Positions 4,845 through 63,080 of a DNA stretch of 64,000 nt are shown one piece after another. The stretch is from Bacteroidia bacterium (GTDB lineage: Bacteria; Bacteroidota; Bacteroidia; JAIBAJ01): assembly GCA_019695265.1 (NCBI GenBank), contig JAIBAJ010000002.1, forward strand, positions 11,822 to 75,821. The letters are read 5' to 3'. Numbering within the stretch: position 1 is the stretch's first letter; each line of letters begins with the position of its first letter. The translations under genes were made by a program, and so were the position numbers. The notes under the pieces are model-generated. The model did no database searches. It was not told the origin of the DNA and saw only the letters and a list, made by a program, of their open reading frames with translations.

Positions 4845-4946
4845 TCGGGTAGGGATAGAGGCAAGTAGCCCACAGGAGCATGCAGCGCCGAACCCTTTCG
4901 GTGCTGCATGCGACGAGGACTACAGCCGATAGCCCGACCATTCGCC
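4845..4946 (+). repeat. E-family structured intergenic repeat, short variant (E1)
   Basis: gtcgggtagggatagaggcaagtagcccacagg...gacgaggactacagccgatagcccgac. The terminal stem is gtcggg/cccgac and the apical hairpin is gcatgcagcgcc...ggtgctgcatgc. Its conserved blocks are shared with 8 other copies in the window. Confidence 0.8.
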
Positions 4947-5065
4947 TTTGTCAATCAAGGATAAGCAAGCCATTTTGTAGCGAATGGGACCCGCCAAAAC
5001 AGAAACAATCAAATGAAAATAATTCTGAAACATTGGATTGGTTACTTTTGCATCAATATGAATGA

Positions 5066-6502
5066 ATGATTAATCGGATGATTGAACGAATGAATGTTAG
5101 GCAGTGGGCAAGTCTTTTTGTGATGTTTTTGGTCTTTGTATTAATGGCTAATTTTGCTGCTGAAGGACAAGAGTATAATTTTTATTATGGCACTTTGCAT
5201 GCCCATTCCGGATATTCGGATGGAAATAAAGATTCGTTGGAATCCGGAATTTATAAGCCTTACGACGATTTTCTATATGCCAGGGAGTCTCAAAATTTTG
5301 ACTTTCTAGGAATTTCGGAACATAATCACCTGGCCGCAGGTTTAGTATTGCCCAATTACCATTTGGGTTTGCAAGAAGCCAATTTGGCTAATTTGGATGG
5401 GGAATTCGTTTGTTTGTTTGGTATGGAGTGGGGTGTAATTAATTCAGGAGGACACCTTATAGTGTATGGTTTTGATTCCTTAGTTGGCTGGGATCCAGGT
5501 AATTATGATATTTACAATGCAGAGACTGATTACCAGGGCTTGTTTGAAAAAATAGCCCAACGCAATCAAACCTTTGCCTATTTGGCTCATCCTCAATCTA
5601 CAGATTATGATAGTTTGTTTTTTAAACCATATGATAGTATTATTGATAAAGCAATAACTGCCATCCCTTTTCGAAGTGGTCCTGCTTTTAGTACCAGCGT
5701 GAATTATGATGACCCGGCCAATGGCACCTATTTAAGTAAGTTTCAAACCGCCCTTTCTAAAGGTTATCATGTTGGAATTTGTATGGATCATGATACTCAT
5801 AATACTGTTTTTGGACGTTCTCAGGCAGGCAGAACAGGGGTAATTGCCAGGGAATTGACTCAAGGTTCTATCTTAAATGCCTATCATGAAATGAATATTT
5901 TTGCTTCCGATGACTGGAATGCACAGGTTGATTTTAGGATAAATAATAAAATAATGGGCTCTGTTTTTTCTGGCCAAGGTCAACCTGAAGTGACAGTGAA
6001 TTACCTCGACCCTGATGGGGAAGGAATTACCCAAATGTGGCTTTATGATGGAACCCCAGGCAGCGGACTTCCTCCCAATTTGGTTTATACTATTTATCAA
6101 AATCAAAGTTTTTCATTTACGCCTAATTTGAACGATGGAGAGACAAAATATTATTACGTAAAGGTTCAACAAACGGATGGAGACCAAATGTATACCTCAC
6201 CCATTTGGTACACAAGAGACGATGATTTAGGTGAGAAGGAAACCAATAATTTACCTGTATTACAGGTGAAATCCGGAATTACAGGTGATTGGGTAAATAT
6301 TAACCTACATTCCAATGGAAATTTCAACGGGGAGTTAAAGTTGGTTAACCTGAATGGTCAACAGGTTTTTACGGAGAAATTACCTTCAACCGGTATTTAC
6401 TCTAAAAATTTTACCAGACAGATGCTGGGTTCGGGTTTGTTTGTAGTTTACCTAAGCAGTGCGGAAGGTGTTACGATTAGTAGGAAGTTTGTAATAGAAT
6501 AG
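5066..6502 (+). CDS. Secreted PHP-domain phosphoesterase with a C-terminal T9SS type-A sorting domain
   Basis: PHP motifs are GTLHAHSGYSDGN and FDFLGISEHNH. A signal peptide sits near MNVRQWASLFVMFLVFVL, so the true start is probably 5093. The C-terminal 80 aa resemble a Por/T9SS sorting domain (LKLVNLNGQQVF...VVYLSSAEGVTISRKFVIE). Confidence 0.65.
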   Translation: MINRMIERMNVRQWASLFVMFLVFVLMANFAAEGQEYNFYYGTLHAHSGYSDGNKDSLESGIYKPYDDFLYARESQNFDFLGISEHNHLAAGLVLPNYHLGLQEANLANLDGEFVCLFGMEWGVINSGGHLIVYGFDSLVGWDPGNYDIYNAETDYQGLFEKIAQRNQTFAYLAHPQSTDYDSLFFKPYDSIIDKAITAIPFRSGPAFSTSVNYDDPANGTYLSKFQTALSKGYHVGICMDHDTHNTVFGRSQAGRTGVIARELTQGSILNAYHEMNIFASDDWNAQVDFRINNKIMGSVFSGQGQPEVTVNYLDPDGEGITQMWLYDGTPGSGLPPNLVYTIYQNQSFSFTPNLNDGETKYYYVKVQQTDGDQMYTSPIWYTRDDDLGEKETNNLPVLQVKSGITGDWVNINLHSNGNFNGELKLVNLNGQQVFTEKLPSTGIYSKNFTRQMLGSGLFVVYLSSAEGVTISRKFVIE

Positions 6503-6687
6503 GTAGTTGCTAAAGATTGGAATTTTCTAAACCCTAAGATATTTGGAAAATTATAGCTGACCGGATTACAAAAAAAGGAGCGAACCAGGAAAAAACAGGA
6601 AAATCTTGTTGGGTTCTACTTCAATTGGAATGGGAAATTGAATTGTACTTTTTCGTCCGTAACAGGAATCAACCTTTTTCTGATCAA

Positions 6688-6856
6688 CCCAAAATTGTCA
6701 TTAGAAATTTTAAACTACGTTTCGAGACAAGTGTTAGTAAGGTTTTCAAGTAATTTTAAATGGTAAGAAAACCTAACTAACACTAGCTCGGGGTTAACCC
6801 GAATCTACCCAAATCCAACCGCACTTGTCATTTGTTCACTTCGTTTCAAATGATAA
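6688..6856 (+). repeat. R2 intergenic repeat, copy A (an inverted homolog lies at 62621-62952)
   Basis: It is co-linear with the reverse complement of 62621-62952 apart from one indel. It contains a hairpin gtgttagtaagg...cctaactaacac and a terminal hairpin ttgtcatttg...caaatga. It sits in the convergent gap between the PHP gene and rnhA. Confidence 0.75.
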
Positions 6857-6878
6857 TTTCGGGATCAATTTGGAATTA

Positions 6879-7355
6879 TCAAAAATCAGAATTTCGACTT
6901 GATTCGAAAAAGGAATCTATTTGTAAGTGTTTACCTTTTGAAGCAGCTACGGCCAATTGGTCACAACGGTTGTTTTCTACATTACTGGCATGTCCTTTCA
7001 CCCAATGGTATTGGATTTGATGCTGTTTGTTGATTTTGTAAAACCTTACCCATAAATCCGGATTTTTTACATTAACAAAGTTCTTTTTTATCCAATTGTT
7101 AAGCCATCCCTTGGTTATTGCATCAATAACATATTTACTATCGGAATATAAATGGCCGTAAGTATTGGGCTTAGTTATGCTTTCCAAAGCGACAATAACA
7201 GCAAGTAATTCCATGCGATTATTGGTTGTAAGTCGATAGCCTTGGGATATTTCTTTGCGATGATGCGCAAACTTCATGACTAATCCAAACCCTCCGGGGC
7301 CAGGATTTCCGGATGCGGCGCCGTCGGTATAAATTTCTAAAACAGGTTGATTCAA
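6879..7355 (-). CDS. rnhA: Ribonuclease HI
   Basis: 158 aa: MNQPVLEIYTDGAASGNPGPGGFG...MELLA...HWVKGHA, with the conserved catalytic D/E/D/D context of RNase H. Confidence 0.9.
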   Translation of the reverse strand: MNQPVLEIYTDGAASGNPGPGGFGLVMKFAHHRKEISQGYRLTTNNRMELLAVIVALESITKPNTYGHLYSDSKYVIDAITKGWLNNWIKKNFVNVKNPDLWVRFYKINKQHQIQYHWVKGHASNVENNRCDQLAVAASKGKHLQIDSFFESSRNSDF

Positions 7356-7386
7356 AACTGGAAATTAAGTAGTCAAAGGTAAAATT

Positions 7387-7743: not shown

Positions 7744-7745
7744 TC

Positions 7746-10511
7746 TTATTGAATAAGGATAACCTTTCCCATGTAGTGGTGTTTGCGTCTAAATTGCACA
7801 TCTATGCAATCGATGCGGTAAGAGTAAACTCCTTGGGGGGCTCTTTGATCAGTTCCTGCAATTTTACCATCCCATCCAATGTCCAGCGATTTGCTCCGAA
7901 ACAATTCCATACCCCAGCGATCGAAAATTCGCATTTCATATCCTTCTTCTAGAACACCGGTTCCTTTGGGTTTAAAAACAGTGTTCTTATTGTCTATGGC
8001 TCCTGTAAAAGCGTTGGGGATGTAGAAGGTAAATTCTGTTGAAAGGCATACTTCGATGGTTGTTGTATCAGAGCACCGGCCGGTATCTGAGGCAACTAGT
8101 TGGATATAAACACAATCATTGCCATCAGGAAAGGACGTAATTGGATTTTCATCTGTTGAATTCCAACCCGTTGGTGCCATGTTCCAGGCAAAAGTAGTGG
8201 CATTCATTGACCTGTTTTCTAAATAAATACTTTCACCTGCATTGGTTAAATAATCAGGTGAATAAACAAAGGAGGCAGTGGGACCCGGGGTTACATGCAC
8301 CAAATTTACTTTTTGGTTTATTCCCAAACAACCATTTAAATCCATTGCGGTTAAAGTGACGGAATAATATCCTTCATTACTAAAACAATGGGTAATTGTA
8401 TCACAGGAATTGGCTGAAGTTCCATCACCAAAATCCCAGGTACAGGTGCCGGTGCTGGATGAAGTGTTAGTAAATTGAATACAAAGAGGAGCACAGCCTG
8501 TTAAGTTTGAACTTGCAAATGCAGGAGAAATACCCGGAACAATATCTAAAAGCAAAGAATCGGTTGATTGACAGCCTTGATTATTGGTTGCGCTTATGTA
8601 ATAATAAGTTGGTATGGTAGGTGAAACTGTTATGGTATTTCCGGTAATTCCTCCGGGTGTCCAGGTAAATTGCAGGTTTTGATTGAAGTTGTCTATTGCA
8701 TACAAGGTGGCTGTTTTGCCATTGCACATGCTGGTATCCGGGGTGTGACTAAATTGAATTGGAGCTGCCAAATCAACCTGAATAGTGGCAGGTCCTGCGT
8801 TACACCCGGTTGCATCTGTAGCAGAAACTGTATATGTGGTATTGGTAGCCGGACTAACCGTAATACTAGCGCTGGTTTCACCGCCCGGATTCCATGAAAA
8901 ACTATATGGACCTGTTCCTCCAACCACCTGTGCTGATAATTGAACTGAACTTCCAAGGCATAGGATGGTATCTGAGCTGGTGTTTATAGTAAGGGAGCTT
9001 CCGGAGGTGATGCTTGTATTGCCAGTGGCTGTGCATCCATTGTTATCGGTTACATCAACCGTGTAATTTCCTGCTATCAAATTGGTTGCAGTTGCGGTAT
9101 TTTGAGCTGGAGTGGTATTCCAAACATAACTGTATGGTGAACTTCCTCCCGAAACAGTTGCCGTGGCAGAGCCTAATCCTCCGCAACCTGCCTGGGTAGG
9201 GGTAATGCTTAAACTAATCGGGGTAGGATCAGTTAGCTGAACCGGCAAAGTCAAAGTACATCCATTGTTGTCTGTTATGGTTACAGAATTAGCTCCACCG
9301 GGCAGTTGGTTGGCATTGGAATTCGTTTCTCCGCTACTCCATGAAAAACTAAATGGACTTGCACCATTGGTCGGATTGGCTTGGGCACTTCCATCAGATA
9401 AGCCAGGACAAGATGGATTTTGAATATTTATCACATTACCTCCGATTACCTGTACCGTTTTCGAAATGGTTCCGGGTGGATTGCAAGGTCCACCGGAAAG
9501 TGTGGCTGTTACGGTATAGGTTCCGGGTGCCGAAAAAGTATGGCTGGGATTGATAGCCGTGGAGGTATTAGATCCCGAACTCGGATCCCCAAAGTCCCAA
9601 CTCCACGATTGGGCTGCTGTGCAAGGTGTGTTGCCTAAAAACGAAAAAGCATTGCCTGCCCCACAGGTATAAGTGAAATCAGGTTGAATTACCGCCCCTT
9701 CCGAGATGGTTATATCGTCAATGGCCAAGCCATCGTAAGCATTGCACGACGATCCTGAACCAAAAGTAAACCGAAGAAGAACATTGGGTTGATTAGCCAA
9801 ACCGGTTAAACAATGTTTGGCCAAAACCCAGGTTCCGCTTCCTCCGCCTCCCAGGCAACTTCCTGAGTTTGCTTGGATATTTCCCGACCAACCATGGCGA
9901 ACGGTTATCCAGGCAGGACTTCCCAAATAGGTTATCGGATCGTAATTGAACCAATTATCGGTATTGCAGTCTACCGCATCGCCAAAAGCTCCAACATTGA
10001 CCCAGGTTACTCCTCCATCAATAGACGATTGCAAGTTTCCACCATCAAATTTTTTTTCGGTTTCCCAAAAGATTTGAAATGAAATAAAAGGATAATTCAG
10101 TGTAGAAAAGTCGAAGCAGGAACTCGTTATAGTTGAATGTTCCGAATTATTGTAGGAAGACCCGGTAAGTCCACCTGTAGTCCAGCAATTTTGTCCACTC
10201 GCTGCTCCGGTAATCACGGGTTTGTTAGGCGTTCCGTAGGTCCAGGAGGAGTTGGTGCCTCCATTGGACCAAATGCCCGGTCCTGATTCAAAATCTTCAA
10301 AATATGGGTAACTGTTTACGGTGCATTGTGCTGCAGTCTTGCCTTTAAACCCTATTGAAAATGCGAATACAAAGCTTAAAATGAGATAAGGATTTAACGA
10401 AGGTCTGCCCAACCACTTTCCAAATAGAAGGTACAGATGGCTATATTTTAACCAATTGTAATATGGATGGCGAATTCTTATCAAAACTGTCAACCAACAA
10501 AGGTAGAGCAA
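7746..10511 (-). CDS. Large secreted PKD/SprB-repeat protein with a T9SS type-B (gliding-motility-associated) C-terminal domain
   Basis: PKD signatures (WDFGDGTSANS, WSWDFGDPSSG...GTYTVTATLSGGP). The C-terminal domain reads YIPNAFTG...FKPKG...MRIFDRWGMELF...WDGK...GVYSYRI, which is typical of the TIGR04131-like type-B domain. The N-terminus (CTVNSYPYFEDFESG) is MAM/LamG-like. The true start is uncertain, because no ATG is found near the signal-peptide-like LILSFVFAFSIG. Confidence 0.75.
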   Translation of the reverse strand: MLYLCWLTVLIRIRHPYYNWLKYSHLYLLFGKWLGRPSLNPYLILSFVFAFSIGFKGKTAAQCTVNSYPYFEDFESGPGIWSNGGTNSSWTYGTPNKPVITGAASGQNCWTTGGLTGSSYNNSEHSTITSSCFDFSTLNYPFISFQIFWETEKKFDGGNLQSSIDGGVTWVNVGAFGDAVDCNTDNWFNYDPITYLGSPAWITVRHGWSGNIQANSGSCLGGGGSGTWVLAKHCLTGLANQPNVLLRFTFGSGSSCNAYDGLAIDDITISEGAVIQPDFTYTCGAGNAFSFLGNTPCTAAQSWSWDFGDPSSGSNTSTAINPSHTFSAPGTYTVTATLSGGPCNPPGTISKTVQVIGGNVINIQNPSCPGLSDGSAQANPTNGASPFSFSWSSGETNSNANQLPGGANSVTITDNNGCTLTLPVQLTDPTPISLSITPTQAGCGGLGSATATVSGGSSPYSYVWNTTPAQNTATATNLIAGNYTVDVTDNNGCTATGNTSITSGSSLTINTSSDTILCLGSSVQLSAQVVGGTGPYSFSWNPGGETSASITVSPATNTTYTVSATDATGCNAGPATIQVDLAAPIQFSHTPDTSMCNGKTATLYAIDNFNQNLQFTWTPGGITGNTITVSPTIPTYYYISATNNQGCQSTDSLLLDIVPGISPAFASSNLTGCAPLCIQFTNTSSSTGTCTWDFGDGTSANSCDTITHCFSNEGYYSVTLTAMDLNGCLGINQKVNLVHVTPGPTASFVYSPDYLTNAGESIYLENRSMNATTFAWNMAPTGWNSTDENPITSFPDGNDCVYIQLVASDTGRCSDTTTIEVCLSTEFTFYIPNAFTGAIDNKNTVFKPKGTGVLEEGYEMRIFDRWGMELFRSKSLDIGWDGKIAGTDQRAPQGVYSYRIDCIDVQFRRKHHYMGKVILIQ

Positions 10512-10606: not shown

Positions 10607-10757
10607 GGCGGGCCCCCTTCGCCCAACAAGCATTTTACAACGGACAATTTATTCTGCTTGGGCGTTCGGGTCACGCTTTCGGCGGTAGTCCTCGTCCCCC
10701 GAGGCTAAAGCCGTCGGGGAACTGTGGGCTACACTGCCTCAATCGTTGCCCGAGCGC
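10607..10757 (-). repeat. E-family structured intergenic repeat, long variant (E2)
   Basis: The reverse complement reads ctcgggcaacgattgaggcagtgtagcccacag...gacgaggactaccgccgaaagcgtgacccgaacgcc...gggcgaagggggcccgcc. Confidence 0.8.
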
Positions 10758-14211: not shown

Positions 14212-14253
14212 CTCCAATTGAAATTCTAGCAAACATTAAACCCAAATTCCGAA

Positions 14254-14330
14254 ATAGAATTCTATTACGGCTTCCAACTACTGCAAATACAAGGATTTCA
14301 GAACAATTTTTGACTTAATAATAGTTTACT
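14254..14330 (+). repeat. R3 short intergenic repeat, copy 1 (second copy at 46374-46450)
   Basis: atagaattctattacggcttccaa...caaatacaaggatttcagaacaatttttgacttaataatagttt is about 85% identical to 46374-46450. Confidence 0.7.
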
Positions 14331-14539
14331 ATTTCTTATCCCAAAAATTAACTTGAAACCCCTGTCCTTATTGTATTTGAAAGCCTCATCACGATTTCTA
14401 ATGCAGAATTTGGGTTAAACCAAAATTGGAACTTTGATTTTCAATCAAAACCTGTTGTTTATCATGCCTTTTTTATGACTGCACCCATAATTGGGCTGTT
14501 ATTGCCCACTTACTTTTGGTGCATATCAATTCATAAAAA

Positions 14540-16439: not shown

Positions 16440-16617
16440 CCGACGCAAACGTATTAATTTTTCAAAAATTGCCATACGTATTGGATATTCAGTTTTGAAA
16501 GTAAAAAAGGGCATTTTAAGCCTTAAAAGATATCAGTTGAAGATTTTGATTTCAACTTTTTGAATTTAAAACCTTTGGTAACCGGTTCTAATTGTTCCTT
16601 GCAAGTTCGGTTGGGTT

Positions 16618-16717
16618 TGGGTCGGGTAGGGATAGAGGCAGTTACCCCACAGGACCACGCAGCGATAGCAAGTGGGACGAGGAGTAACGACGATAGCCCG
16701 GACCTGAGCCCGGTTAC
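16618..16717 (+). repeat. E-family structured intergenic repeat, short variant (E3)
   Basis: gtcgggtagggatagaggcagttaccccacagg...acgaggagtaacgacgatagcccggac. The inner stem cagttac/gtaac covaries with caagtag/ctac in the other copies. Confidence 0.8.
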
Positions 16718-16798
16718 CTTTTGGGCAATGTTATCCAAGTTCATGCGAAGGTACCCGCATAATAAGCATTTAAAAAAAAGAAGCCAACTGTTGCAGGT

Positions 16799-17965
16799 TT
16801 AAGGTAAATTACTGTCAATTAATTCCACCAAACCTTCCATTTCAGTAGTGGAGTTAAAGGTGTGCAGGCAAATTCGAATACGCTCCTTGCCTTTAGGAAC
16901 CGTGGGAAAAACCAAGGGGCGTAAATCAAAACCTGAGTCCAGCAACTTAGCACAAAGCTTACGTACTTCGTGGTTTCCGGGAAGCAAAAGTCCTTGAATC
17001 ATGCTGGAACTTCCCTTTAGAAAGGGCAAATGGGCATGAGTTTCCATTAGATTTTTAAAGGTCTGAATGGTTTTTTGAGCTTGTTGGGGATAATCGGGAT
17101 GCGAATTTAGCAACTCGTAAGCCGATTTAATTTCAAGCAGGGAAGTCAATGACGCAGCCGTAGAATAAATAAAGGAGCGGGCAAAATTGATTAGGTATTG
17201 TTTACCTAAAGGAGAGGTTAATACGGCCGCACCATGGTTTCCTAAAGCTTTAGAAAAGGTTATTAAACGGGCAAAGATGCGGTTTTGAAGGCCTAATTCA
17301 TAGCATAATCCTTGACCTTTTGGCCCAAAAATGCCGGTTGCATGGGCTTCATCCGCAAGAATATTAGCGCCATACTTTTCGGCAAGTTCGCAAATTTCTG
17401 TAAGAGGGGCAGGGTCTCCATCCATGGAGTAAATAGTTTCTACCAGTATAAATTTTTGGAAATCAATTGATTCTCCTTTGGTATGGGCCAAAAGTGCTTC
17501 CAAGTGATCCATATCGTTGTGCTGAAACGGAATTCCTTTTATTCGGGCTAGTTTCATACCATCGTGCATGGAAGCGTGAACCAGTTCATCGTAAAATACC
17601 ACGTCGCCCGGACGAACGAAGGCCGAAATCATACCGATGTTGGCATCATAACCCGAGTTAAAGAGCAAGGCAGCCGGTGCATCGTGGAAGGCTTGTAAGG
17701 TATTTTCAATTTCTTCGGCTAATTCCGAATTGCCCGAAAGCAACCTGGAACCGGTGGAGCCATGTTTTCGAAGGTTGGTATCGTGAAATTGTTGCCAATG
17801 CTGAACAAACAAATCATCCAGCTCCAATGATCTTGAAAATCCCAAATAGTCGTTGGAGTAAAAATCAACCAATCCTCCGGTAAGTTTAAGGGTTCTTAAA
17901 CTCCCTTCCTGCTTGCGTTTTTCAAGGACTTCGGCAAGCCTTTTTTCGATTGGATATTCAGGCAA
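16799..17965 (-). CDS. bioF: 8-amino-7-oxononanoate synthase (class I/II PLP-dependent acyltransferase)
   Basis: 388 aa with GSRLLSGN, DEAHATGIFGPKGQG and the PLP-lysine context TFSKALGNHGAAV. It lies immediately downstream of bioB. Confidence 0.75.
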   Translation of the reverse strand: MPEYPIEKRLAEVLEKRKQEGSLRTLKLTGGLVDFYSNDYLGFSRSLELDDLFVQHWQQFHDTNLRKHGSTGSRLLSGNSELAEEIENTLQAFHDAPAALLFNSGYDANIGMISAFVRPGDVVFYDELVHASMHDGMKLARIKGIPFQHNDMDHLEALLAHTKGESIDFQKFILVETIYSMDGDPAPLTEICELAEKYGANILADEAHATGIFGPKGQGLCYELGLQNRIFARLITFSKALGNHGAAVLTSPLGKQYLINFARSFIYSTAASLTSLLEIKSAYELLNSHPDYPQQAQKTIQTFKNLMETHAHLPFLKGSSSMIQGLLLPGNHEVRKLCAKLLDSGFDLRPLVFPTVPKGKERIRICLHTFNSTTEMEGLVELIDSNLP

Positions 17966-18988: not shown

Positions 18989-20755
18989 TTAGTAAACCTC
19001 CAATTCGTAAGGTATTCTGGCTTGAATGCCTTCAATTTGTAAAGCACGCTGAATTCGTTTATAGTATTCGTAATGTTGTCCCAATTGGGCTTTAATGATG
19101 GCTTCTTCACCTTCGCCACCCAATTGTTTCATTATTTTTTGGAAAGGTTCTTCTTGCTCCGGATAGCCAACTACACGGTAGTTTTCAAGTTTGGCTTTTT
19201 TAGCAGCAAAAGCAATTGCATCTTTTAATCCACCAAATTCATCTATCAATTTGATTTTTTTGGCATCACTTCCGGCCCAAACACGACCTTGACCAATGGA
19301 ATCAACATTGGCGGTTGGCATGTTACGACCTTCTCCAACGTGGGTAATAAAGGTTTGGTAAACTTCTTCTACACCTTGTTGAATAATATCTCTTTCGGTG
19401 TCGGTAAGCGGACGATAAGAGGCTCCCATGTCGGCAAACTTATTGGTACGAACGGTATCAATTGTAATACCTAATTTGTTGTTGAACAACTTCTTGGTAT
19501 TCATCAATACGCCAAATACACCGATGGAACCGGTAATGGTGTTCGGACTGGCGAAAATTCGATCGGCTGCACATGAAATATAGTACCCGCCTGATGCAGC
19601 TACATCACCCATAGAAACAACCACCGGCTTAACTTTCTTGGTCAAAACAACTTCTCTCCACATAATGTCCGAAGCCAAAGCCGATCCTCCAGGAGAGTTA
19701 ACACGCAAAACAATGGCCTTCACTTTCTCGTCCAATCTGGCTTTACGAATAGCGGCTGCAATTCGGTCTCCACCAACATTGTCATCTTCTCCTTCACCAT
19801 CAACAATATCTCCGCTGGCATAAATAATGGCCACTTTTTCTTTAACTTTTTCTTCTTTACTTGGAGTTTCAAAATACTTGCTCAAACTCACAAACTTAAT
19901 TTTGTCTTTTTCTTCAATACCAACACGTTTACGCAGGCTAGCCTGAATTTCATCTTCATAGGCTAGTTTGTCAACCAATTTATATTTCAACGCATCTTTT
20001 GGGTTGCGAATCAAAGCTTGGTCGGCCATGGCATTTAATTCCTGAACCGATAGTTTACGTGCAGATGAAATTCCATCTAACATACGGTTCCACAATGCAT
20101 TTAGGTAAGTGGAGGTTTGCTCGCGGTTGGCATCGCTCATTTTGTCTAAAATCAAAGGCTCAATAGCACTTTTGAATTTTCCATGGCGAATAATTTGTGG
20201 TTCAACTTCCAACTTTTCCAAAGTGCCTTTTAAAAACATAACCGAGGCAGAAAGTCCACGAAAATCCAATCCTCCTTCCGGGTGGATCATGATAGAATCA
20301 GCAACGGATGACAAATAATAGGCTTTTTGATCGTAAGTATTTGAATAGGCCAAGATAAATTTGCCCGATTTCTTAAAATCTAATAAGGCATTCCGAATTT
20401 CTTCGGTGGTAGCCATTCCCGCAGGAACACCATCAATATGCATATAGATTCCTTTGATTTTATCATCGGTTTTGGCTTTTTCAAGTCCATTTAAAATGTC
20501 CACCAAGCCCATTCCTTGTTTGTTTTGGCCACTAAGTGGATTAAAATTTTTGAACGGATTGTTATCTGACCGATCAGAAATTGGACCTGAAAATTCAATT
20601 TTTAAGATGCTATTATCATCAATTTCAGCAGTCTTTTTGCTGCCTGCAGATGCTGCAATGCCTCCAATAATGGCAATTACCAGGAACAAAAGAATTACAT
20701 TGGCCAAAATAAAACCAAGCATTGAGGCGAAAACAACTTTGAAGAACTGTTTCAT
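18989..20755 (-). CDS. sppA: Signal peptide peptidase SppA (67K type, protease IV)
   Basis: 588 aa with an N-terminal transmembrane anchor and tandem ClpP/crotonase-fold halves, with Ser/Lys dyad contexts. Confidence 0.85.
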   Translation of the reverse strand: MKQFFKVVFASMLGFILANVILLFLVIAIIGGIAASAGSKKTAEIDDNSILKIEFSGPISDRSDNNPFKNFNPLSGQNKQGMGLVDILNGLEKAKTDDKIKGIYMHIDGVPAGMATTEEIRNALLDFKKSGKFILAYSNTYDQKAYYLSSVADSIMIHPEGGLDFRGLSASVMFLKGTLEKLEVEPQIIRHGKFKSAIEPLILDKMSDANREQTSTYLNALWNRMLDGISSARKLSVQELNAMADQALIRNPKDALKYKLVDKLAYEDEIQASLRKRVGIEEKDKIKFVSLSKYFETPSKEEKVKEKVAIIYASGDIVDGEGEDDNVGGDRIAAAIRKARLDEKVKAIVLRVNSPGGSALASDIMWREVVLTKKVKPVVVSMGDVAASGGYYISCAADRIFASPNTITGSIGVFGVLMNTKKLFNNKLGITIDTVRTNKFADMGASYRPLTDTERDIIQQGVEEVYQTFITHVGEGRNMPTANVDSIGQGRVWAGSDAKKIKLIDEFGGLKDAIAFAAKKAKLENYRVVGYPEQEEPFQKIMKQLGGEGEEAIIKAQLGQHYEYYKRIQRALQIEGIQARIPYELEVY

Positions 20756-20872: not shown

Positions 20873-21022
20873 GCGGGCCCCTTTTTGCCTTACAGGTTTG
20901 TTGATATGCTCCAAAATGGCTGCCACAGGCAAAAAGGTCACGCTTTCGGCTGTAATCCTCGTCGCACTTGGCTAGCGCCGCGTTCTCCTGTGGGTTACTT
21001 GCCTCAATCGTTGCCCGAGGGT
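20873..21022 (-). repeat. E-family structured intergenic repeat, long variant (E4)
   Basis: The reverse complement reads ctcgggcaacgattgaggcaagtaacccacagg...gacgaggattacagccgaaagcgtgacc...gggcccgc. The stem gtaa/ttac covaries with gtag/ctac in the other copies. Confidence 0.75.
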
Positions 21023-23137: not shown

Positions 23138-23293
23138 TACCAGTGTTATTTGAGAAATAGTCCAAAACCTATTTCGAAAATTACAGGGGTAAATTCCGAT
23201 GCTAAAGCTGTTTAGGCAAATTAGTGCGAAGCTTCATTGGATTAATACAGTTCGGCTATCGATATTAGTCCAATAAACAGACGAAAGGGTAAT

Positions 23294-23323
23294 AAAAAAG
23301 GCCGAAAATTTCGGCCTTTTTTA
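23294..23323. terminator. Bidirectional rho-independent terminator
   Basis: aaaaaaggccgaaaatttcggcctttttt is a perfect GC stem flanked by A and T runs. It lies between convergent genes. Confidence 0.75.
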
Positions 23324-23397
23324 TTGTTAGGAAAGTTTATCCTTTTTAGTTTTCAAATATCCAGGTGATTTTTAAGAAAATAGCCGGATAATCGGAA

Positions 23398-27310: not shown

Positions 27311-27458
27311 CATCGGGCAACGATAGAGGCAAGTAGCCCACAGGACACCGACGGCGCTAGCCTAGGGGGACGAGGACTACAGCCGATAGCGTGACCCGAA
27401 CGCCCATGCAAGTAGTTAAGGATTTGGTAAACAAATAGTTGGGCGGAGGGGGCCCGCC
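27311..27458 (+). repeat. E-family structured intergenic repeat, long variant (E5)
   Basis: atcgggcaacgatagaggcaagtagcccacaggac...gacgaggactacagccgatagcgtgacccgaacgcc...gggcggagggggcccgcc. Confidence 0.8.
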
Positions 27459-40127: not shown

Positions 40128-43100
40128 TTATTTTGTCAGTTTTTTCTCTGTATCCGGATAAACATACAGTTTTCCGGTATATATATGACGCATGTCGTTG
40201 TTATCCAATATGTTAACCTTGTAAACATAAATATCCTGCTTGATCATCTTCCCTTCACTCGAATTCTTAAAATCCCTTACTGACCCATCCCATGTTTCTT
40301 CAGGATTTTTTGACCTGAATATTTCTTCTCCCCACCTGTTGAAAATCTGTAATTCGTAGGTCTTTATTGCCATTCCTTTCCCTCCCCAAATTTCATTTTT
40401 CAAATCATGATTAGGTGTAAATGCATTCGGAATATACCAGGCAAAGTCCGGAACCACATGAACATACCTTGAAATTGTATCTAAGCATCCAAATTCAGTT
40501 ACTGCGGTTAGAAACAAATGATACATTCCTGTATCGTTATAAATATGTTCAATTAAATCGTTCAAATTGTCAGTATTCCCATCTCCATAATCGATAGTAC
40601 ATGAATTCCAGCCTAAACTCTCATTTACAATTATTACAGAAGGATTCAAAATTCCAACCGTTTCTTTGTCTGTTGAAAAATCTGCAGTAGGCAATGGATG
40701 AACCGTAACCGCATCTGCCGCAACCAATGTATCTATGCAACCATCAATGCTTTTAACAATTAAGGTAATATCATACAAGCCTGTTGGGAAATCTTCGGGT
40801 CCTGGTGCTAAATCGTCCGATGTATTTCCATTGCTAAAATCCCAGAAATAATCGATGATTTGATGAGGAGGATTGATTGGTGAAGATCCGCTAGAGAATC
40901 GAACGGTGTGTACATCACATCCTTCATCATCATCCATCACAAAATCAGCCTGTGGTATCGGATTCACTTCCACCGGAGTATTTGCCATTCCAATACAGCC
41001 CTGATCCGAAATTACCGTTAATGTTGTGGCATAGGTACCTGCGGCAGGATATAAATGGCTGGTAGAATCCCCACTAAATGTAGTATTATCTCCAAAATCA
41101 AATAAATATGAATTAATGCTGCCATAACTAATGGTGGAGGTTGATTCAAAAATCATAGGTACTTTGTCGCAAACATCTGGTGATGTAAAACTGGCAATAG
41201 GTAGAGGATAAATTTTCACCTCTTGTATCATAGTGTCTTTGCACTGTGAAAAATTCTCAACAATCAATCGAACCATAAATCCTGTATCAGGTTTTGATCC
41301 TATATAAGCATGAACTGGATTATACACAGGGTCTTGGACCGTCGCAATGGGTGGCTCTCCAAAATCCCACTCCCTTAGGGTAATTACATCGTTGGGATTG
41401 GTTGAATTATCTATAAATGTAATGGGTGTTCCTTGACATAAATCCAATGAAGAAACCGTAAAACTAGCGGTTGGCTTTTCAGATACAACTACATCTTTGG
41501 TAACCGTAGATGTACAAAGGCCGGCAACAACATCCAATGTAACAGTAAAGGTTCCTGGACCTAAGTAATTATGAACCGGATCATGAGCTACCGAAAAGGT
41601 TCCATCTCCGAACGACCAGGTTTGGGTGGTTCCAATTGCTGGAATAGTGGTATTGGTGAATATGGCATTATCCTGAGGATCACAAATTGGAACCGGAGTA
41701 GTAAAATTTGCTACCGGTAAGGGTTGAACATAGATTGATTCGGAATAAGATGCACTACATTGATTTCCGTCTACAATAGTTAAAACTGCTGTGCAATTGG
41801 TATTACTCGAAAATGTATGAGAAGCATTAGCTGTTGTATATAGGCCTCCTGGAGGATTGATTTGCCATCTAAAGGTCATGGCAGGATCAGTAGGTGTTGT
41901 ATTATAAAAATTTGTTGGTGTTCCAATACATGAAGTGTCGTAAATAAATGATGGTATCGGGTTGGGATAAATGGTCAACGGCTGTGTTACACTACCGGGG
42001 CAGCTTTCAATAGTAACTACCGATAAGGTAACATTGTAAGTACCGCTGGCTAAATAAGGATGTGAGGTAATTTGTCCGGTCCCAAATGGATTTGTTCCAT
42101 CCCCAAAATCCCAGGTATAGTTTGCAATGGTGGATGGTGTTGGCACAGTGGAGGTGCTTTGAAAACTGATGAGTGAGTTTGGGCATTGTCCAATACCTCC
42201 TGTAGTAGAAGTCGTGAAACTTACGGTTGGATTGGCATAAACAGTCGCTGTTCCGGTCCTGGTAACCGAACATCCGGATGGAGTTGTTGCCGTTACTGAA
42301 TAGTTTTGTTGACCTGCCGAAGCATAGGTATGCGATAAATCAGATCCGTTTTGAACAGGTGAACCATCACCAAAATCATAACTAACACTGTAGGTGTCTG
42401 TACATCCTCCGGTGAAAAATACTGTTTCATCAAATACAACAGGAGCTCCTTCGCATGGAGATGATTGGGTTACCGTTAAATCGGGTAATCCGGTTACATC
42501 TAAAATCCTACTCGTACTTGCCATACATCCACCATCCGTATTTACGGTTAAGGTAACTGTAATTTGACCGCAGTTGGTTACATTAATTACAGGATTCTGT
42601 AACCCTGAATGAATCGTTAAGCTTCCAAAATCCCAGTCATACGACTGAATACTACCTAAACTAACTGTGCTATTGTCTACAAAAGCTGCTGCCGAATTTT
42701 CGCAAATTCCTCCTGGAGTAGTAAAGTCAGCAACAGGTACCGGACTTACCTGAAATTCTGTACCCGATATGGTCGTGGCTATTCCGGGTGTTTGTAAGGA
42801 TACATTGGTTCCTGTCTGTCCATTGGTCATATTGGGTTGTCCTCCGGTTCCGGCATTGCCAAATCCAACGTCAATTCCTAATCCCGGACCATTGCTTACG
42901 GTATAAAATCGTTTAACACGTCCCCCACTGCCTCCTCCTCCTCCTTCCACATTCACAGAACTTGCACCATTACCACCTTTGCAGGTTATTGTCCCTGTTC
43001 CATTAATGTAAATACCTTGCAATAATACACCTCCTCCCGATCCTCCTCCTTCACTTTCTTTTTGGGGATCATTGCAGCCGGTCGCATTTTGCCCATTCAT

Positions 43101-43991
43101 CGAAATGTTCCCATTCACATTGATAACCAATCCTGTTGCGGTAAAAGCACCACCTCCCGCTGCCGATGCCGGACATTCAGAACCTCCTCCTCCTGATCCC
43201 ATATCGATATCATTGGCATTCGCCGTTCCATATGGTTGTCCTGCATTCGATGGAGTCGAAATCCCTCCTCGTCCACCAAAATTACCATATCCTCCGCCTC
43301 CGCCTCCAATCGTAGAAAACCCATCACCTCCTAATCCCAATCCGGCTGGTGGTCCGGGCGGACCGCTCGCTGGTCCATAACCTTTCCCATTCCCATCAAT
43401 ATTACCTAAAATATTGATTTTTTTTCCATTAAAAACCAATGGTTGCTGAGGATTTAAACTAACTGTAACCCCGGCATTCACCGTAATTCGATCATAGTTT
43501 TGAACACCACTTAAAGTCTGATTCGATGAAATAGTTAAACTGGTCGAAAAAAATGCATTGCAATTTGTCCCGGAAGGAGCAGCCGCATTGTCATAATACA
43601 TATAAATGTCTAAAGTCGCACCTGAAGCTATGGATGGTAAACTTATCCAAATCTCTGTCTGTGTCGTGTTTATTCCACTTTCAATACAAAATGGTAAAGG
43701 ATTTCCACAGGGAGAATCTAAAAATCGAAGATCATTTCCGTTAGCCTGTAATTTTCCCGCAGCAATCAAAGCTTGGGTGTTTATATAAAAAATATGTGGC
43801 GCACCTGCAACGGATGCATTCCCGTTTTCATTCTTAAATTGAATTAATTGGTAATGCTTCCAAGGGGTATAATCACAACAAGTTGCCGGATTGTTAATTT
43901 GTGAATAGGCAATTGGTCTGTATGCCCATAAACAGATTAACAGAAGGGAAATATATCTAAGGTTTTTCTGCACTTTTTCGGTAATGTGCAA
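40128..43991 (-). CDS. Large secreted protein with a glycine-rich beta-helix-like region, multiple PKD domains and a T9SS type-B C-terminal domain
   Basis: 1287 aa with a signal peptide. A Gly-rich stretch (GGGGGYGNFGGRGG...GGGGGSGG) lies at about 42840-43400. PKD repeats include WDFGDGT and YDFGDGS. The C-terminal domain reads AWYIPNAFTPN...ELQIFNRWGEEIF...WDG...DIYVYKV. Confidence 0.75.
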   Translation of the reverse strand: MHITEKVQKNLRYISLLLICLWAYRPIAYSQINNPATCCDYTPWKHYQLIQFKNENGNASVAGAPHIFYINTQALIAAGKLQANGNDLRFLDSPCGNPLPFCIESGINTTQTEIWISLPSIASGATLDIYMYYDNAAAPSGTNCNAFFSTSLTISSNQTLSGVQNYDRITVNAGVTVSLNPQQPLVFNGKKINILGNIDGNGKGYGPASGPPGPPAGLGLGGDGFSTIGGGGGGYGNFGGRGGISTPSNAGQPYGTANANDIDMGSGGGGSECPASAAGGGAFTATGLVINVNGNISMNGQNATGCNDPQKESEGGGSGGGVLLQGIYINGTGTITCKGGNGASSVNVEGGGGGSGGRVKRFYTVSNGPGLGIDVGFGNAGTGGQPNMTNGQTGTNVSLQTPGIATTISGTEFQVSPVPVADFTTPGGICENSAAAFVDNSTVSLGSIQSYDWDFGSLTIHSGLQNPVINVTNCGQITVTLTVNTDGGCMASTSRILDVTGLPDLTVTQSSPCEGAPVVFDETVFFTGGCTDTYSVSYDFGDGSPVQNGSDLSHTYASAGQQNYSVTATTPSGCSVTRTGTATVYANPTVSFTTSTTGGIGQCPNSLISFQSTSTVPTPSTIANYTWDFGDGTNPFGTGQITSHPYLASGTYNVTLSVVTIESCPGSVTQPLTIYPNPIPSFIYDTSCIGTPTNFYNTTPTDPAMTFRWQINPPGGLYTTANASHTFSSNTNCTAVLTIVDGNQCSASYSESIYVQPLPVANFTTPVPICDPQDNAIFTNTTIPAIGTTQTWSFGDGTFSVAHDPVHNYLGPGTFTVTLDVVAGLCTSTVTKDVVVSEKPTASFTVSSLDLCQGTPITFIDNSTNPNDVITLREWDFGEPPIATVQDPVYNPVHAYIGSKPDTGFMVRLIVENFSQCKDTMIQEVKIYPLPIASFTSPDVCDKVPMIFESTSTISYGSINSYLFDFGDNTTFSGDSTSHLYPAAGTYATTLTVISDQGCIGMANTPVEVNPIPQADFVMDDDEGCDVHTVRFSSGSSPINPPHQIIDYFWDFSNGNTSDDLAPGPEDFPTGLYDITLIVKSIDGCIDTLVAADAVTVHPLPTADFSTDKETVGILNPSVIIVNESLGWNSCTIDYGDGNTDNLNDLIEHIYNDTGMYHLFLTAVTEFGCLDTISRYVHVVPDFAWYIPNAFTPNHDLKNEIWGGKGMAIKTYELQIFNRWGEEIFRSKNPEETWDGSVRDFKNSSEGKMIKQDIYVYKVNILDNNDMRHIYTGKLYVYPDTEKKLTK

Positions 43992-44206
43992 ATCTAATCA
44001 TTATAACCATTCCAACAATTACATTTTTCTAATTTTGTCGGTCAAAACTGCTTAAATTTTCATTCTTCATTAAACTTTAAAGGTTCATCGTGTCGGGTTT
44101 TAACACTTTACATGCTATTTATTGAGTTCTATCACTGTTCTCCCGTCGTTTTCTTTCTTCTTTTTGACTAGTTTTTTATCTATTTCTAAGTTGGATGCGG
44201 GCCCCC

Positions 44207-44345
44207 TTCCGCCATCCTAAAAATGTGCCAATCCCCGAATAGAGTGCCTGGCGTTCGGGTCACGCTTTCGGCTGTAGTCCTCGTCCCCCTAGGCTAACGC
44301 CGTCGGTGTCCTGTGGGCTACTTGCCTCTATCGTTGCCCGAGGTG
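44207..44345 (-). repeat. E-family structured intergenic repeat, long variant (E6)
   Basis: The reverse complement reads ctcgggcaacgatagaggcaagtagcccacaggacaccgacggcgttagcctagggggacgaggactacagccgaaagcgtgacccgaacgcc...ggcggaagggggcccgc. This is near-identical to E5 across the variable hairpin. Confidence 0.8.
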
Positions 44346-46147: not shown

Positions 46148-46373
46148 GTTGAATTAGATTGTTGGTGCAAAATTCAACCGGAATTAAAAAAAAATCAATA
46201 CGAAAAAAGTAGTATTTCTTAGTTGAGAACTATAGATGGGTAGCTTATACAGAAAGTGCCAGTTAAGTGTGTCGGAAACAGTGAAGATATTGCCATATTT
46301 CGGAATAACAATTAGCAGCATCAGATTACTGACTTCTTTACAAAACCTCAAGTAATTTAACCTAAAATCTGCA

Positions 46374-46450
46374 ATAGAATTCAATTACGGCTTACAATTG
46401 TTTCAAATACAAGTGTTTCAGAACAATTTTTGACTTCAAAATAGTTTGGT
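46374..46450 (+). repeat. R3 short intergenic repeat, copy 2
   Basis: atagaattcaattacggcttacaa...caaatacaagtgtttcagaacaatttttgacttcaaaatagttt. The E7 repeat starts 25 nt downstream of it. Confidence 0.7.
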
Positions 46451-46475: not shown

Positions 46476-46620
46476 ACTCGGGCAACGATAGAGGCAAGTA
46501 GCTCCAAGCCAACGCAGCGTTTAGCGGAGTTGGCGCGGACTACAGCCGATAGCGTGACCCGAACGCCCATGCAAGTTGGTTTGGGTTTAGCAAATAGATA
46601 GTAGGGCGAAGGGGGCCCGC
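46476..46620 (+). repeat. E-family structured intergenic repeat, long variant (E7)
   Basis: ctcgggcaacgatagaggcaagtagc...gcggactacagccgatagcgtgacccgaacgcccatgcaag...gggcgaagggggcccgc. The apical hairpin gccaac...gttggc differs from the other copies but keeps the pairing. Confidence 0.8.
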
Positions 46621-50909: not shown

Positions 50910-50910
50910 T

Positions 50911-58875: not shown

Positions 58876-58878
58876 ACT

Positions 58879-59571: not shown

Positions 59572-59625
59572 TCTAGTTTGCGAAAGTAGGTCGTTCGTAG
59601 GTATTTAAGAAAAGAAATTTGATAA

Positions 59626-60636: not shown

Positions 60637-60646
60637 TTAATTAAGT

Positions 60647-61225: not shown

Positions 61226-61254
61226 TTTTACATTTTATTTTATTCTGATTATAT

Positions 61255-62304
61255 ATGCCTAAAATTGAAGGAAAAATCCGCTATGCCGTTGTAGGAACCG
61301 GACATATCGGTAAAAGACATTCCGAAATGATTCGTAGGAATGCCGAAAGTGAATTAATAGCTATTTGCGACGTTAGACCTAAAGAGGTTTTGGGTTTAGA
61401 TGAATACAAAGACGTTCCATTTTTTAACTCCATCGACGATCTGCTTGGAAGTGGACTTGAATTTGATGTCGTTAATATTTGTACCCCCAATGGATTTCAT
61501 GCAGAACATGCCATTAAGGCTCTTGATGCCAACAAACATGTGGTAGTAGAAAAACCAATGGGACTTACCAAAGCAGAGTGTGAGCAAGTGATTTTTAAAT
61601 CATTACAGGTTTCTAAGCAAGTTTTTTGTGTTATGCAAAATCGCTACTCTCCGCCTTCTGAATGGATTAAAAGTGTGGTTGAAAAAAACATTCTTGGAAA
61701 AGTTTTCTTAGTGCAATTGAATTGTTATTGGAACCGCGATGAGCGTTATTATAAAAAGGATACCTGGAAAGGTCGTCAGGATTTAGATGGAGGTACTTTG
61801 TTTACCCAATTTAGCCATTTTATCGATATCATGTATTGGCTTTTTGGTGATATTAAAGATATTCAAGCCAAATTCAACGATTTTACCCATAAAAACAATA
61901 CTGATTTCGAAGATTCCGGACTCGTAAATTTCAACTTTGTTAATGGAGGAATGGGTAGTATTAATTATTCTACCTCTGTTTGGGATACTAATTTGGAAAG
62001 TTCCATTACCATTGTCGGCGAAAAAGGAAGTGTTAAAATTGGTGGACAATATATGAATGAAGTGGAGTATTGCCACATTAAAGACTATACTATGCCCGAA
62101 CTTGCCCCTGTAAATCCGGCTAACGATTACGGTGGATATAAAGGTTCTGCGGCCAATCACCATTACATTATTGAAAACGTGGTGGATGTGTTAAAAGGTC
62201 GTAGTAGTATCACTACCAATGCTTTAGAAGGTTTGAAAGTGGTTGAGATTATTGAACGAATTTATTCCCTTAGACCTAAGAATGTAATTAAAGCCAATCA
62301 TTAA
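61255..62304 (+). CDS. Gfo/Idh/MocA-family oxidoreductase (WbpB-like sugar-nucleotide 3-dehydrogenase)
   Basis: Rossmann motif IRYAVVGTGHIGKRH, plus a C-terminal Gfo/Idh/MocA domain. Confidence 0.7.
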   Translation: MPKIEGKIRYAVVGTGHIGKRHSEMIRRNAESELIAICDVRPKEVLGLDEYKDVPFFNSIDDLLGSGLEFDVVNICTPNGFHAEHAIKALDANKHVVVEKPMGLTKAECEQVIFKSLQVSKQVFCVMQNRYSPPSEWIKSVVEKNILGKVFLVQLNCYWNRDERYYKKDTWKGRQDLDGGTLFTQFSHFIDIMYWLFGDIKDIQAKFNDFTHKNNTDFEDSGLVNFNFVNGGMGSINYSTSVWDTNLESSITIVGEKGSVKIGGQYMNEVEYCHIKDYTMPELAPVNPANDYGGYKGSAANHHYIIENVVDVLKGRSSITTNALEGLKVVEIIERIYSLRPKNVIKANH

Positions 62305-62342
62305 GATTGGTTTTTTTTTGGTTTTTATGTAAGGCCTTATTT

Positions 62343-62490
62343 GGCGGGCCCCCTTCGCCTTCCTTTCATTTGTGTGATGATCAAGTTGCATGCATGAAGG
62401 CTTCGGGTCACGCTATCGTCTGTAGTCCCGGCTCAGCCCACAAGCCTTATTAGCCGGGAGCTACTTGCCTCTATCGTTGCCCGAGGTGCA
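62343..62490 (-). repeat. E-family structured intergenic repeat, long variant (E8)
   Basis: The reverse complement reads ctcgggcaacgatagaggcaagtagctcccggct...agccgggactacagacgatagcgtgacccgaag...ggcgaagggggcccgcc. The apical stem cccggct/agccggg is again different but complementary. Confidence 0.8.
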
Positions 62491-62620
62491 ACCCCAGTCA
62501 TTAACAAAAAACCGGATTTACAACCAACCTCCTCCATTGATGAATGGTGAGTTCGGAAGGAAGGTCAGGTGTAAATTGGATATGCTGATTAGGCTATGCC
62601 AGAATTGTCTTGAACCCAGA

Positions 62621-62952
62621 TTGTCATTTGAAACGAAGTGAACAAATGACAAGCGCGATGGGATATGGGATGATTTGGGTTAATTCCGAGCTAGTGTTAG
62701 TTAGTGCCGAGGAAACAAAATGTTAGTCCTATTTTACAAGAAATATTAACACTTAATAGGACTTACATTTTGTACTCTCGGTATTCTTTCAAACTTAGGA
62801 ATATGCCGAGGATACATTATGTTATCAATTTTACATAAGAAAACTAGTATATAAATTGATATTACATAATGTTCTCTCGGTAAAAATTACTTGAAAGCCT
62901 TACTAACACTTGTCTCGAAACGTAGTTTAAAATTTCTATTGACAATTTTGGG
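62621..62952 (-). repeat. R2 intergenic repeat, copy B (inverted relative to copy A), carrying a 178-bp nested insertion (62705-62882) made of two tandem palindromic units
   Basis: The flanks are co-linear with the reverse complement of 6688-6856. The insert contains two about 80-bp hairpins, each with ccgag[a/g]g...cctcgg termini. Unit 1 stem: ccgaggaaacaaaatgttagtcctatt / aataggacttacattttgtactctcgg. Unit 2 stem: ccgaggatacattatgttatcaat / attgatattacataatgttctctcgg. Confidence 0.75.
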
Positions 62953-62989
62953 ATTAATTTGGGTTAAAGGTAGCATGGTACTTTCCGGG

Positions 62990-63080
62990 GTTCGGTCGGG
63001 TAGGGATAGAAGTGGATAGCCCACAGCCCCAAACCCTTTTGGGGCGAGGACTAGGAACGAATAGCCCGGGCCTGAGCCTG
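62990..63080 (+). repeat. E-family structured intergenic repeat, short variant (E9)
   Basis: gtcgggtagggatagaagtggatagcccacagcc ccaaacccttttgggg cgaggactaggaacgaatagcccgggc. Confidence 0.75.

Follow-up and report, generated by a model that had tools for sequence, protein, structure and literature searches.

The stretch analyzed here, 64,000 nt of contig JAIBAJ010000002.1 (positions 11,822 to 75,821; GenBank assembly GCA_019695265.1, Bacteroidia bacterium) and referred to below as the window, carries nine copies, E1 to E9, of a structured intergenic repeat. The setting is that of the Bacteroidota, with cargo proteins of the type IX secretion system (T9SS) bearing CHU_C or Por_Secre_tail domains. 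An initial annotation had reported nine copies in both orientations, and all were recovered, with refined limits (Table 1). We took each element to run from TCGGG to CCCGC, with (+) denoting the strand so written. Repeat finding, motif search and a covariance model (R1) built from the nine trimmed copies and run over the window with filters off all returned the same nine elements and no others; R1 scored these at 95 to 158 bits and the next-best match in the window at 8.8 bits. All nine sites are connected by families of direct and inverted repeats in the window repeat search, and a 23-nt conserved block was matched four times with three or fewer mismatches allowed, whereas 100 shuffles gave no match. 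The copies are 128 to 150 nt long with a G+C content of 55 to 61% (about 58% overall, against 38.6% for the window), and no open reading frame (ORF) of at least 100 aa is overlapped by any of them, in agreement with their description as always intergenic. Full-length pairwise identity is only 52 to 85%, so the copies are not recent duplicates, and the R1 scan detected no decayed fragments or relics in the window. A 3′ extension had been ascribed to six long copies only; all nine possess it, E1, E3 and E9 in a variant ending ACCCGC.

RNAalifold analysis of the nine copies predicts a three-way junction, which seven of the nine also give when folded as single sequences, including E1, where it is the minimum-energy fold (z = −7.7). 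The two ends of the element pair over 5 bp to form helix P1 (CGGGY with RCCCG). In arm A, a long hairpin, the internal loops form a fixed series, with the invariant, purine-rich ones in the lower half (GAUAGAGG opposite CGAWAGC, and ACA opposite GA); arm B is a hairpin free in sequence and length, usually with a tandem G.A and with a free apical region. On the written strand, purines make up nearly all of the unpaired positions (A, GA/GA, AA/A and ACA/GA, with GA/GA in arm B). On the 3′ side of P1 there follows an unpaired CCA (or CAU/CCU) and then an A-rich tract; the unpaired CCA is present in 72 of 99 copies, and the next 12 nt are 59% A. The mean fold z score against shuffled sequences is −3.1 for the written strand and −2.3 for its complement.

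The fold is under selection. Among the nine copies, 90.0% of the cells at paired positions hold standard pairs, compared with 33 to 49% when the 3′ partners are slid, and 12 pairs change on both sides, a number reached by none of 500 shuffles. A set of 105 distinct copies from relatives of the window gave 91.2% of 2821 cells paired (28 to 48% when slid), with 26 of 28 pairs changing on both sides and 350 compensated cells, values that no shuffle equaled; this alignment was fitted to the model and so favors the structure, and the MAFFT-based count on the nine copies agrees with it. In P1, 97.3% of cells are paired, with covariation at each of its five positions. A rival local helix, in which UCGGG pairs with CCCGA just after arm A, was rejected, being only 69.9% paired and without covariation. 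Compensatory change thus backs a closed three-way junction, and the earlier view that the element is structured, its internal loops conserved and its stems covarying, is borne out. The compensatory stems quoted for E1 (gtag/ctac), E3 (gttac/gtaac) and E4 (gtaa/ttac) are present, as are the apical hairpins cited for E1, E7 and E8. Individual copies illustrate the pattern: the arm B stem of E4 is Watson-Crick throughout (CCTTTTTGCC/GGCAAAAAGG), the apical part of arm A in E7 has been swapped for a different, compensated helix, and E6 and E5 share 96% identity across P1 and arm A but have unrelated arms B. Among the mismatch classes there is no excess of G.U (20) over A.C (31), which fits neutral single mutations in copies or a strand-symmetric constraint and differs from typical functional RNAs.

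The initial annotation could match the element to no known RNA family, and a search of Rfam at the gathering threshold (42 bits for Flavo-1) indeed gave no match in the window. At relaxed thresholds, the Rfam search that had been proposed aligned E9 with Flavo-1 (RF01705) at 27.6 bits, below that cut-off, over the whole model (positions 1 to 76) and with every model helix kept; for the other eight copies no Flavo-1 match was listed even at E ≤ 10. The remaining sub-threshold Rfam matches in the window correspond to AT-rich hairpins or a terminator and not to this element. The Flavo-1 core pattern (3 bp, an A/G mismatch, 2 bp, a GA(A)/G(N)A loop, 2 to 3 bp, a loop, 4 bp and a variable tip) is present in the E9 alignment, in the nine-copy consensus and in the seed sequences. 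A degenerate form of this pattern, scanned against one genome per species, returned 98 loci, of which about 60 come from OZ260106.1, a metagenome-assembled genome (MAG) of an uncultured Bacteroidia bacterium, and 12 from Flavobacteriaceae, the rest being chance matches. R1 finds 111 elements in these loci, and the model built from nine copies, as the initial annotation had suggested, retrieves homologs as well as the copies themselves. Two of the elements that it retrieved, both from Aquimarina (L023 and L091), score 44.1 and 43.0 bits with Flavo-1 and pass the Rfam cut-off.

The publication of Flavo-1 described a probable non-coding RNA that shows covariation and has 239 representatives and no cis-regulatory assignment, and the flanks of its 2010 seed sequences contain a closing helix that covaries (GCGUG/CACGC or GCGUU/AACGC), a short second hairpin, and then CCA and an A-rich tract (PMC2864571, supplementary file 29). 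The window elements share with Flavo-1 the core GGGAUWGARGY ... CGNAWAGCCC, carried by a long hairpin whose internal loops come in the same order, the phylum Bacteroidota, the occurrence of many copies per genome and, once the seed flanks are considered, the closing helix, second hairpin, CCA and A-rich tail. They differ in that even the best copy stays below the gathering score, in P1 (CGGGY/RCCCG against GCGUK/MACGC) and in arm B (47 to 58 nt against 7 to 30 nt), and in that the Rfam model comprises arm A only. We therefore place the window elements in Flavo-1 as a branch with a long arm B and a P1 of the CGGGY type, arm A being the Flavo-1 portion. The published 76-nt model, for one of the most abundant of Rfam's bacterial "sRNAs", is thus one arm of a larger closed three-way junction, and a fuller model would recover many copies that Rfam misses, as it misses all nine at gathering threshold here.

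Related genomes have gained or lost copies at different sites. The collections searched do not contain the window itself, and exact look-ups of two of its proteins gave no record. Synteny with the window at 25.9 to 34.1 kb is found in locus L017 of OZ260106.1 (identities of 66% for DprA, 84.5% for a fatty-acid hydroxylase and 70% for a 1280-aa protein). Two spacers of this block differ: the dprA/hydroxylase spacer that holds E5 is 524 bp in the window, whereas in OZ260106.1 the two genes lie 2 bp apart and free of E5; the next spacer is 60 bp in the window and 890 bp in OZ260106.1, where it contains a repeat like a MITE (miniature inverted-repeat transposable element) and a head-to-head pair of elements. 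The element is missing from all of the 56 metagenome loci that encode the hydroxylase (closest protein 75% identical), and it was not found in plasmid and phage collections; the four pattern matches to viral contigs fail to fit the model.

With respect to genes, the orientation of copies looks random. Within the window, four of the nine are upstream of a gene in the sense direction (71 to 205 nt) and five face a gene end or are antisense; between tandem genes of OZ260106.1 there are 11 sense and 10 antisense copies. A correlation between orientation and flanking gene direction, which the initial annotation had thought worth checking, is therefore not apparent. The genes downstream of the sense copies in the window are unrelated, encoding a metallohydrolase-like protein, two secreted PKD proteins and SppA. 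The Bacteroidota −7 box, TAnnTTTG, occurs within 100 nt upstream of none of the nine window copies and of one of 99 other copies (of the OZ260106.1 type). No intrinsic terminator or U-tract lies 3′ of the structure, the tract there being A-rich on the forward strand; a role as Rho-independent terminator was rejected on this ground and because the U-run of the reverse strand precedes the structure. In this lineage the element is thus gained and lost between related genomes, has no promoter or terminator of its own, is randomly oriented in relation to genes and is often paired head to head. Large T9SS cargo genes (7746-10511, 40128-43991 and 15258-16514, with PKD, SprB and Kelch repeats and CHU_C/Por_Secre_tail domains) adjoin E copies, and T9SS cargo genes are downstream of two of the four sense-upstream copies.

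A different situation is found in some Flavobacteriaceae. In five loci (two Altibacter, Rasiella, Euzebyella and a Flavobacteriaceae MAG) the element lies, on the same strand, 20 to 166 nt upstream of the transfer-messenger RNA (tmRNA) gene ssrA. Four of the five have a perfect TATCTTTG box that begins 15 to 16 nt before the element, and in Euzebyella the box begins 41 nt before it. In F. psychrophilum the TATCTTTG box is located at −12 to −5 relative to the start site, which predicts a transcription start 3 to 8 nt before P1. Only 20 nt separate the element from the tmRNA in Altibacter, so the element would be within the ssrA primary transcript. P1 is retained in the five ssrA copies despite one U.G wobble and a change from U-A to C-G. 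The element also precedes lepA in two Aquimarina genomes, where the box lies at −17 and 18 nt separate the end of the element from the start codon, and a small ORF followed by ettA in two Ulvibacter genomes. A conserved lepA leader was rejected when the regions upstream of lepA in three more genera, Aureitalea, Zunongwangia and Gangjinia, proved to lack the element; the association is accordingly specific to some lineages. We infer that the element is transcribed in sense at ssrA and lepA in these genera. Its proximity to the start site of two unrelated genes suggests either an insertion preference or a benefit that exists only at the very 5′ end; a leader that protects the 5′ end would behave like these copies.

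Rfam currently labels Flavo-1 as 'Gene; sRNA', and a family of independently transcribed, trans-acting small RNAs (sRNAs) with arm B as the variable targeting region would account for the conserved fold, for ends closed by P1 and an unpaired CCA, like those of stable small RNAs, and for the canonical −7 box just before the flavobacterial copies. We nevertheless regard it as improbable, given the near absence of such boxes upstream of the window and OZ260106.1-type copies, the lack of an intrinsic terminator in the A-rich tract, and the fact that the promoter-linked copies precede ssrA or lepA and hence form a leader and not a separate gene. The loops of arm B likewise offer no sign of a guide or antisense function, their longest matches or complements in the window being 10 to 12 nt, no better than those of shuffled loops. 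RNA-seq of F. psychrophilum places Flavo-1 matches sense, antisense or outside transcripts, with many untranscribed (PMC9723704).

A cis-regulatory leader of the downstream gene, such as a riboswitch or protein-binding attenuator, perhaps linked to translation stress, is in our estimate just as doubtful. The copies before ssrA (five genomes), lepA (two) and the small ORF with ettA (two), which resemble those of the window, the P1 maintained at ssrA and the four sense-upstream window copies all fit such a role. It is at odds with the five window copies that are convergent with or antisense to their neighbors, the unrelated genes downstream of the sense copies, the lepA leaders without the element and the dprA/hydroxylase locus, which does without it in OZ260106.1 and in the 56 metagenome loci. 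Most of the evidence in the source genome favors a dispersed repeat over a set of sRNA genes or riboswitches.

The terminal helix, formed from the two ends and followed by an unpaired CCA, together with the single conserved copy upstream of tmRNA genes, recalls tRNA, tmRNA and viral tRNA-like structures. The helix of the element, however, is 5 bp long and without a discriminator base, the junction is three-way and not four-way, D and T loop motifs are absent and no tRNA or tmRNA model matches. We treat the resemblance to a tRNA acceptor as a lead only.

The orientation of the copies follows a pattern of its own. Along the window it reads + − + − + − + − +, so that all eight neighbor pairs are inverted, as are 37 of the 40 adjacent pairs in OZ260106.1; the inversion is seen up to a distance of 16 kb and does not depend on gene direction. 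OZ260106.1 has 18 head-to-head doublets, 79 to 527 nt apart, and among its longer-range pairs 9 are head-to-head, 10 tail-to-tail and 3 direct. There is no strand bias along the OZ260106.1 chromosome, and the balance of (+) and (−) copies in every 0.5-Mb bin led us to reject a replichore-dependent strand bias of the IS200/IS605 type; integron attC sites were also dismissed, since the copies alternate among housekeeping genes and no integrase is present in the window. Single additions to an alternating series must create direct neighbors, which calls for an origin as head-to-head pairs or for the loss of direct neighbors. Doublets usually join two subfamilies, and in OZ260106.1 doublets of subfamilies i and ii share a homologous spacer; as several doublets share such a spacer, including a short minisatellite, the doublet itself has been copied. 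The doublet of the window, E8/E9, has another repeat inserted in its spacer, which without it would be about 135 nt, compared with doublet spacers of 79 to 320 nt in OZ260106.1. Four of those spacers (L046 2871-3031, L070 4137-4275, L030 7250-7403 and L084 1700-1941) hold a variable minisatellite, (CTCACTACTCTTTT)n, along with two to three partial repeats of the 5′ start of the element (CCGGGCA.GGA), each preceded by AAAA. At L007 392-1410, a gene for a PdeM-like ligase-associated phosphoesterase stands between two inward-pointing elements 727 nt apart, the shortest tail-to-tail pair seen.

Conservation within the element is uneven. Among 41 copies of the main OZ260106.1 subfamily, pairwise identity averages 92% in P1 with arm A, against 48% for an approximately 45-nt 5′ extension and 53% for arm B, and in the middle of the arm B stem three base pairs vary from copy to copy yet remain complementary. 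This pattern points to each copy being under selection, to exchange between copies that homogenizes arm A, or to template switching inside the hairpin, and mosaic copies suggest that exchange between copies occurs.

Alternation and exchange could also be read as signs of a DNA-level site, a cruciform or folded strand bound by a nucleoid, topoisomerase or recombinase protein, for which the orientation of neighbors matters. Such sites have precedent in bacterial interspersed mosaic elements (BIMEs), which bind gyrase and IHF. The opposite orientation of neighbors regardless of gene direction, the symmetric mismatch classes with pairs that are almost only Watson-Crick and the frequent exchange suggested by mosaic copies all agree with this explanation, which we rate as unlikely, though deserving of some weight: the invariant loops are purine-rich on one strand only, which folds somewhat better, the syntenic block next to E5 shows no inversion with respect to OZ260106.1, the element has no linked candidate for the binding protein or recombinase, and a duplex site does not require a three-way junction with a conserved unpaired CCA.

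A classical MITE, left by an insertion sequence (IS) and moved by the IS transposase through terminal inverted repeats, seems to us very improbable. The differences in presence between related genomes are what such an element would produce, and the element does cluster with genuine MITE-like repeats. Its ends, on the other hand, are complementary over just 5 bp, compared with inverted repeats of at least 10 bp, no target-site duplication was seen, the interior is a conserved multi-helix junction and not a long palindrome, plasmid and phage collections gave no match, and no transposase with matching ends occurs in the window and the loci examined. The initial annotation had excluded an IS-derived MITE on the ground that the elements are not perfect palindromes and lack terminal inverted repeats; MITE-type ends are indeed absent, but P1 is a minimal terminal inverted repeat, and this part of the description needs amending.

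The suggestion of a REP/BOX-like element, on the other hand, remains the best description of how the repeat sits in the source genome. In common with repetitive extragenic palindromic (REP) sequences, BIMEs and REP doublets forming hairpins (REPINs), it is extragenic, high in copy number and G+C-rich within A+T-rich spacers; compensatory change keeps the structure, copies are gained and lost between relatives and lie near gene ends, and several subfamilies combine in inverted doublets with characteristic linkers. It differs from them in being four times longer, with a three-way junction instead of a single hairpin. REPs associated with REP-associated tyrosine transposases (RAYTs) are short imperfect palindromes of 20 to 40 nt, whereas the units here are multi-helix structures of 128 to 150 nt; the GTAG or CGTC foot is missing, a GUAG occurring inside arm A and not at the base; no RAYT gene was found nearby in the loci examined; and the alternation of orientation spans many kilobases. 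Enterobacterial repetitive intergenic consensus (ERIC) sequences, or intergenic repeat units (IRUs), and pneumococcal BOX elements are similar in being intergenic repeats of 100 to 200 nt in either orientation, with conserved modules and a variable middle, which fold when transcribed and can alter mRNA stability. ERIC, however, is one long imperfect palindrome and BOX a tandem array of boxA, boxB and boxC modules, neither has sequence similarity to the element, and both lack a closing helix followed by an unpaired CCA as well as invariant tandem G.A loops.

We therefore favor, with confidence evenly balanced between its being right and wrong, an explanation in which the nine elements are long-form Flavo-1 and act as a non-autonomous dispersed repeat of the REP/BIME kind, whose folded strand is read by a trans-acting factor. 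The closest functional analogy is with REP, BIME and REPIN sequences, while the family membership is that of Flavo-1. Copying or maintenance would need the folded single strand; a putative trans-acting protein would read the invariant loops of arm A, with the stems needing only to pair, and a putative trans-acting activity would spread the element. Copies transcribed in sense would give a compact RNA with its 5′ end locked in P1, and at the predicted ssrA and lepA starts of some Flavobacteriaceae the element probably acts as a stabilizing or insulating leader.

Several observations weigh against this dispersed-repeat explanation. No target-site duplication or exact insertion boundary can be defined, the flanks of about 100 copies having no direct repeat and only the A-rich 3′ flank. 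Neither the window nor some 490 kb of OZ260106.1 loci yielded a RAYT-like or other recurrent transposase ORF; a linked transposase was rejected because clustering of the ORFs from both gave only paralogs of secreted proteins and receptors, and no ORF in the same sequences combines HUH and Y motifs in a search for HUH/Y1 proteins. The REPs of the Bacteroidetes RAYT subclass 2.6 are short simple hairpins, unlike the element (PMC6006769, Table S1). The lack of relics, with arm A conserved in every copy, could mean that each copy has a host function. The strand preference in folding is mild, and the near-perfect alternation is not predicted by simple insertion of one copy at a time.

A broader proposal is that Flavo-1, instead of a simple hairpin sRNA, might be a tRNA-acceptor-like three-way-junction module (P1 with its unpaired CCA) that exists in two forms: as a leader near the start site, kept on the ssrA, lepA and ettA transcripts of ribosome rescue and translation stress, and, in some lineages, as a self-propagating repeat that spreads in head-to-head pairs. 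One conserved Bacteroidota protein would read the structure, and the enforced alternation would stem from a way of copying or recombining that has no described precedent among bacterial repeats. We consider this proposal quite unlikely. Gain and loss of the REP type mean that annotators should not label such matches as sRNA genes. The copies at the strong ssrA and lepA promoters offer tractable cases for an effect at the RNA level, and the alternation of orientation, together with a near-invariant arm A against a free arm B, provides testable clues to how the element is copied.

Table 1. Coordinates, R1 scores and placement of the nine elements in the window, with the parts of the reference copy E5 and the spacer of the E8/E9 doublet
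Feature	Position	Strand	Type or content	R1 score (bits)	Placement
E1	4845..4994	+	T subfamily, P1 CGGGU/ACCCG	118.2	71 nt upstream of same-strand ORF 5066..6502, in divergent intergenic region
E2	10608..10753	-	C subfamily, P1 CGGGC/GCCCG	145.5	96 nt upstream of same-strand T9SS PKD protein gene 7746..10511 (Pfam)
E3	16622..16758	+	T subfamily	113.8	antisense to both flanking genes; 3′ end 41 nt from stop of 16799..17965
E4	20873..21018	-	C subfamily	138.9	117 nt upstream of same-strand sppA-like gene 18989..20755
E5	27313..27457	+	C subfamily, reference copy	158.2	between convergent dprA and fatty-acid hydroxylase gene
E5, P1	27314-27318 with 27452-27456		closing helix		
E5, arm A	27320-27392		Flavo-1 core		
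E5, arm B	27395-27450		hairpin		
E5, arm B tandem G.A	27398-27399 and 27446-27447				
E6	44197..44341	-	C subfamily	136.6	205 nt upstream of T9SS protein gene 40128..43991
E7	46478..46620	+	C subfamily	140.4	antisense to both adjoining genes
E8	62344..62484	-	C subfamily, left member of head-to-head doublet	108.9	3′ end 40 nt from stop of 61255..62304
E8/E9 doublet spacer	62485..62995	.	enlarged by another inserted repeat at ~62610-62975		
E9	62996..63123	+	T subfamily, right member of doublet	95.3	3′ end 28 nt from stop of 63151..63945

Other repeats accompany the elements in the window. A MITE-like repeat of about 185 nt lies at 14235-14419, with terminal inverted repeats TTAAACCCAAATT... 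and ...AATTTGGGTTAAA, and a half copy at 46355-46447 is directly 5′ of E7; at least nine OZ260106.1 loci have copies 86 to 88% identical, and these often abut E elements on their 5′ side. Another repeat family, with 87 to 97% identity, is found at 6688-6862 (−) and 62615-62952 (+), the second copy being the one within the E8/E9 spacer. Inserted in this copy are 178 nt (62705-62882) that comprise two AT-rich hairpins in tandem, about 85 nt in size, with GCCGAGG...CTCTCGG at the borders; these hairpins account for weak miRNA-like Rfam matches. At 23288-23392, between convergent genes, there is a perfect bidirectional hairpin resembling an intrinsic terminator, AAAAAAGGCCGAAAATTTCGGCCTTTTTT, which explains the weak STnc430, sraA and MicC Rfam matches and indicates that ordinary terminators exist in the genome. 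Among the loci retrieved, L008, L043 and L049, on a contig binned as Sediminibacterium sp. CRY1-m2-bin07, carry the same elements and flanks as L047, L048 and L077 of OZ260106.1 (CRY1-m2-bin03), and the same DNA seems, from these sequences, to have been deposited in two bins of one study.

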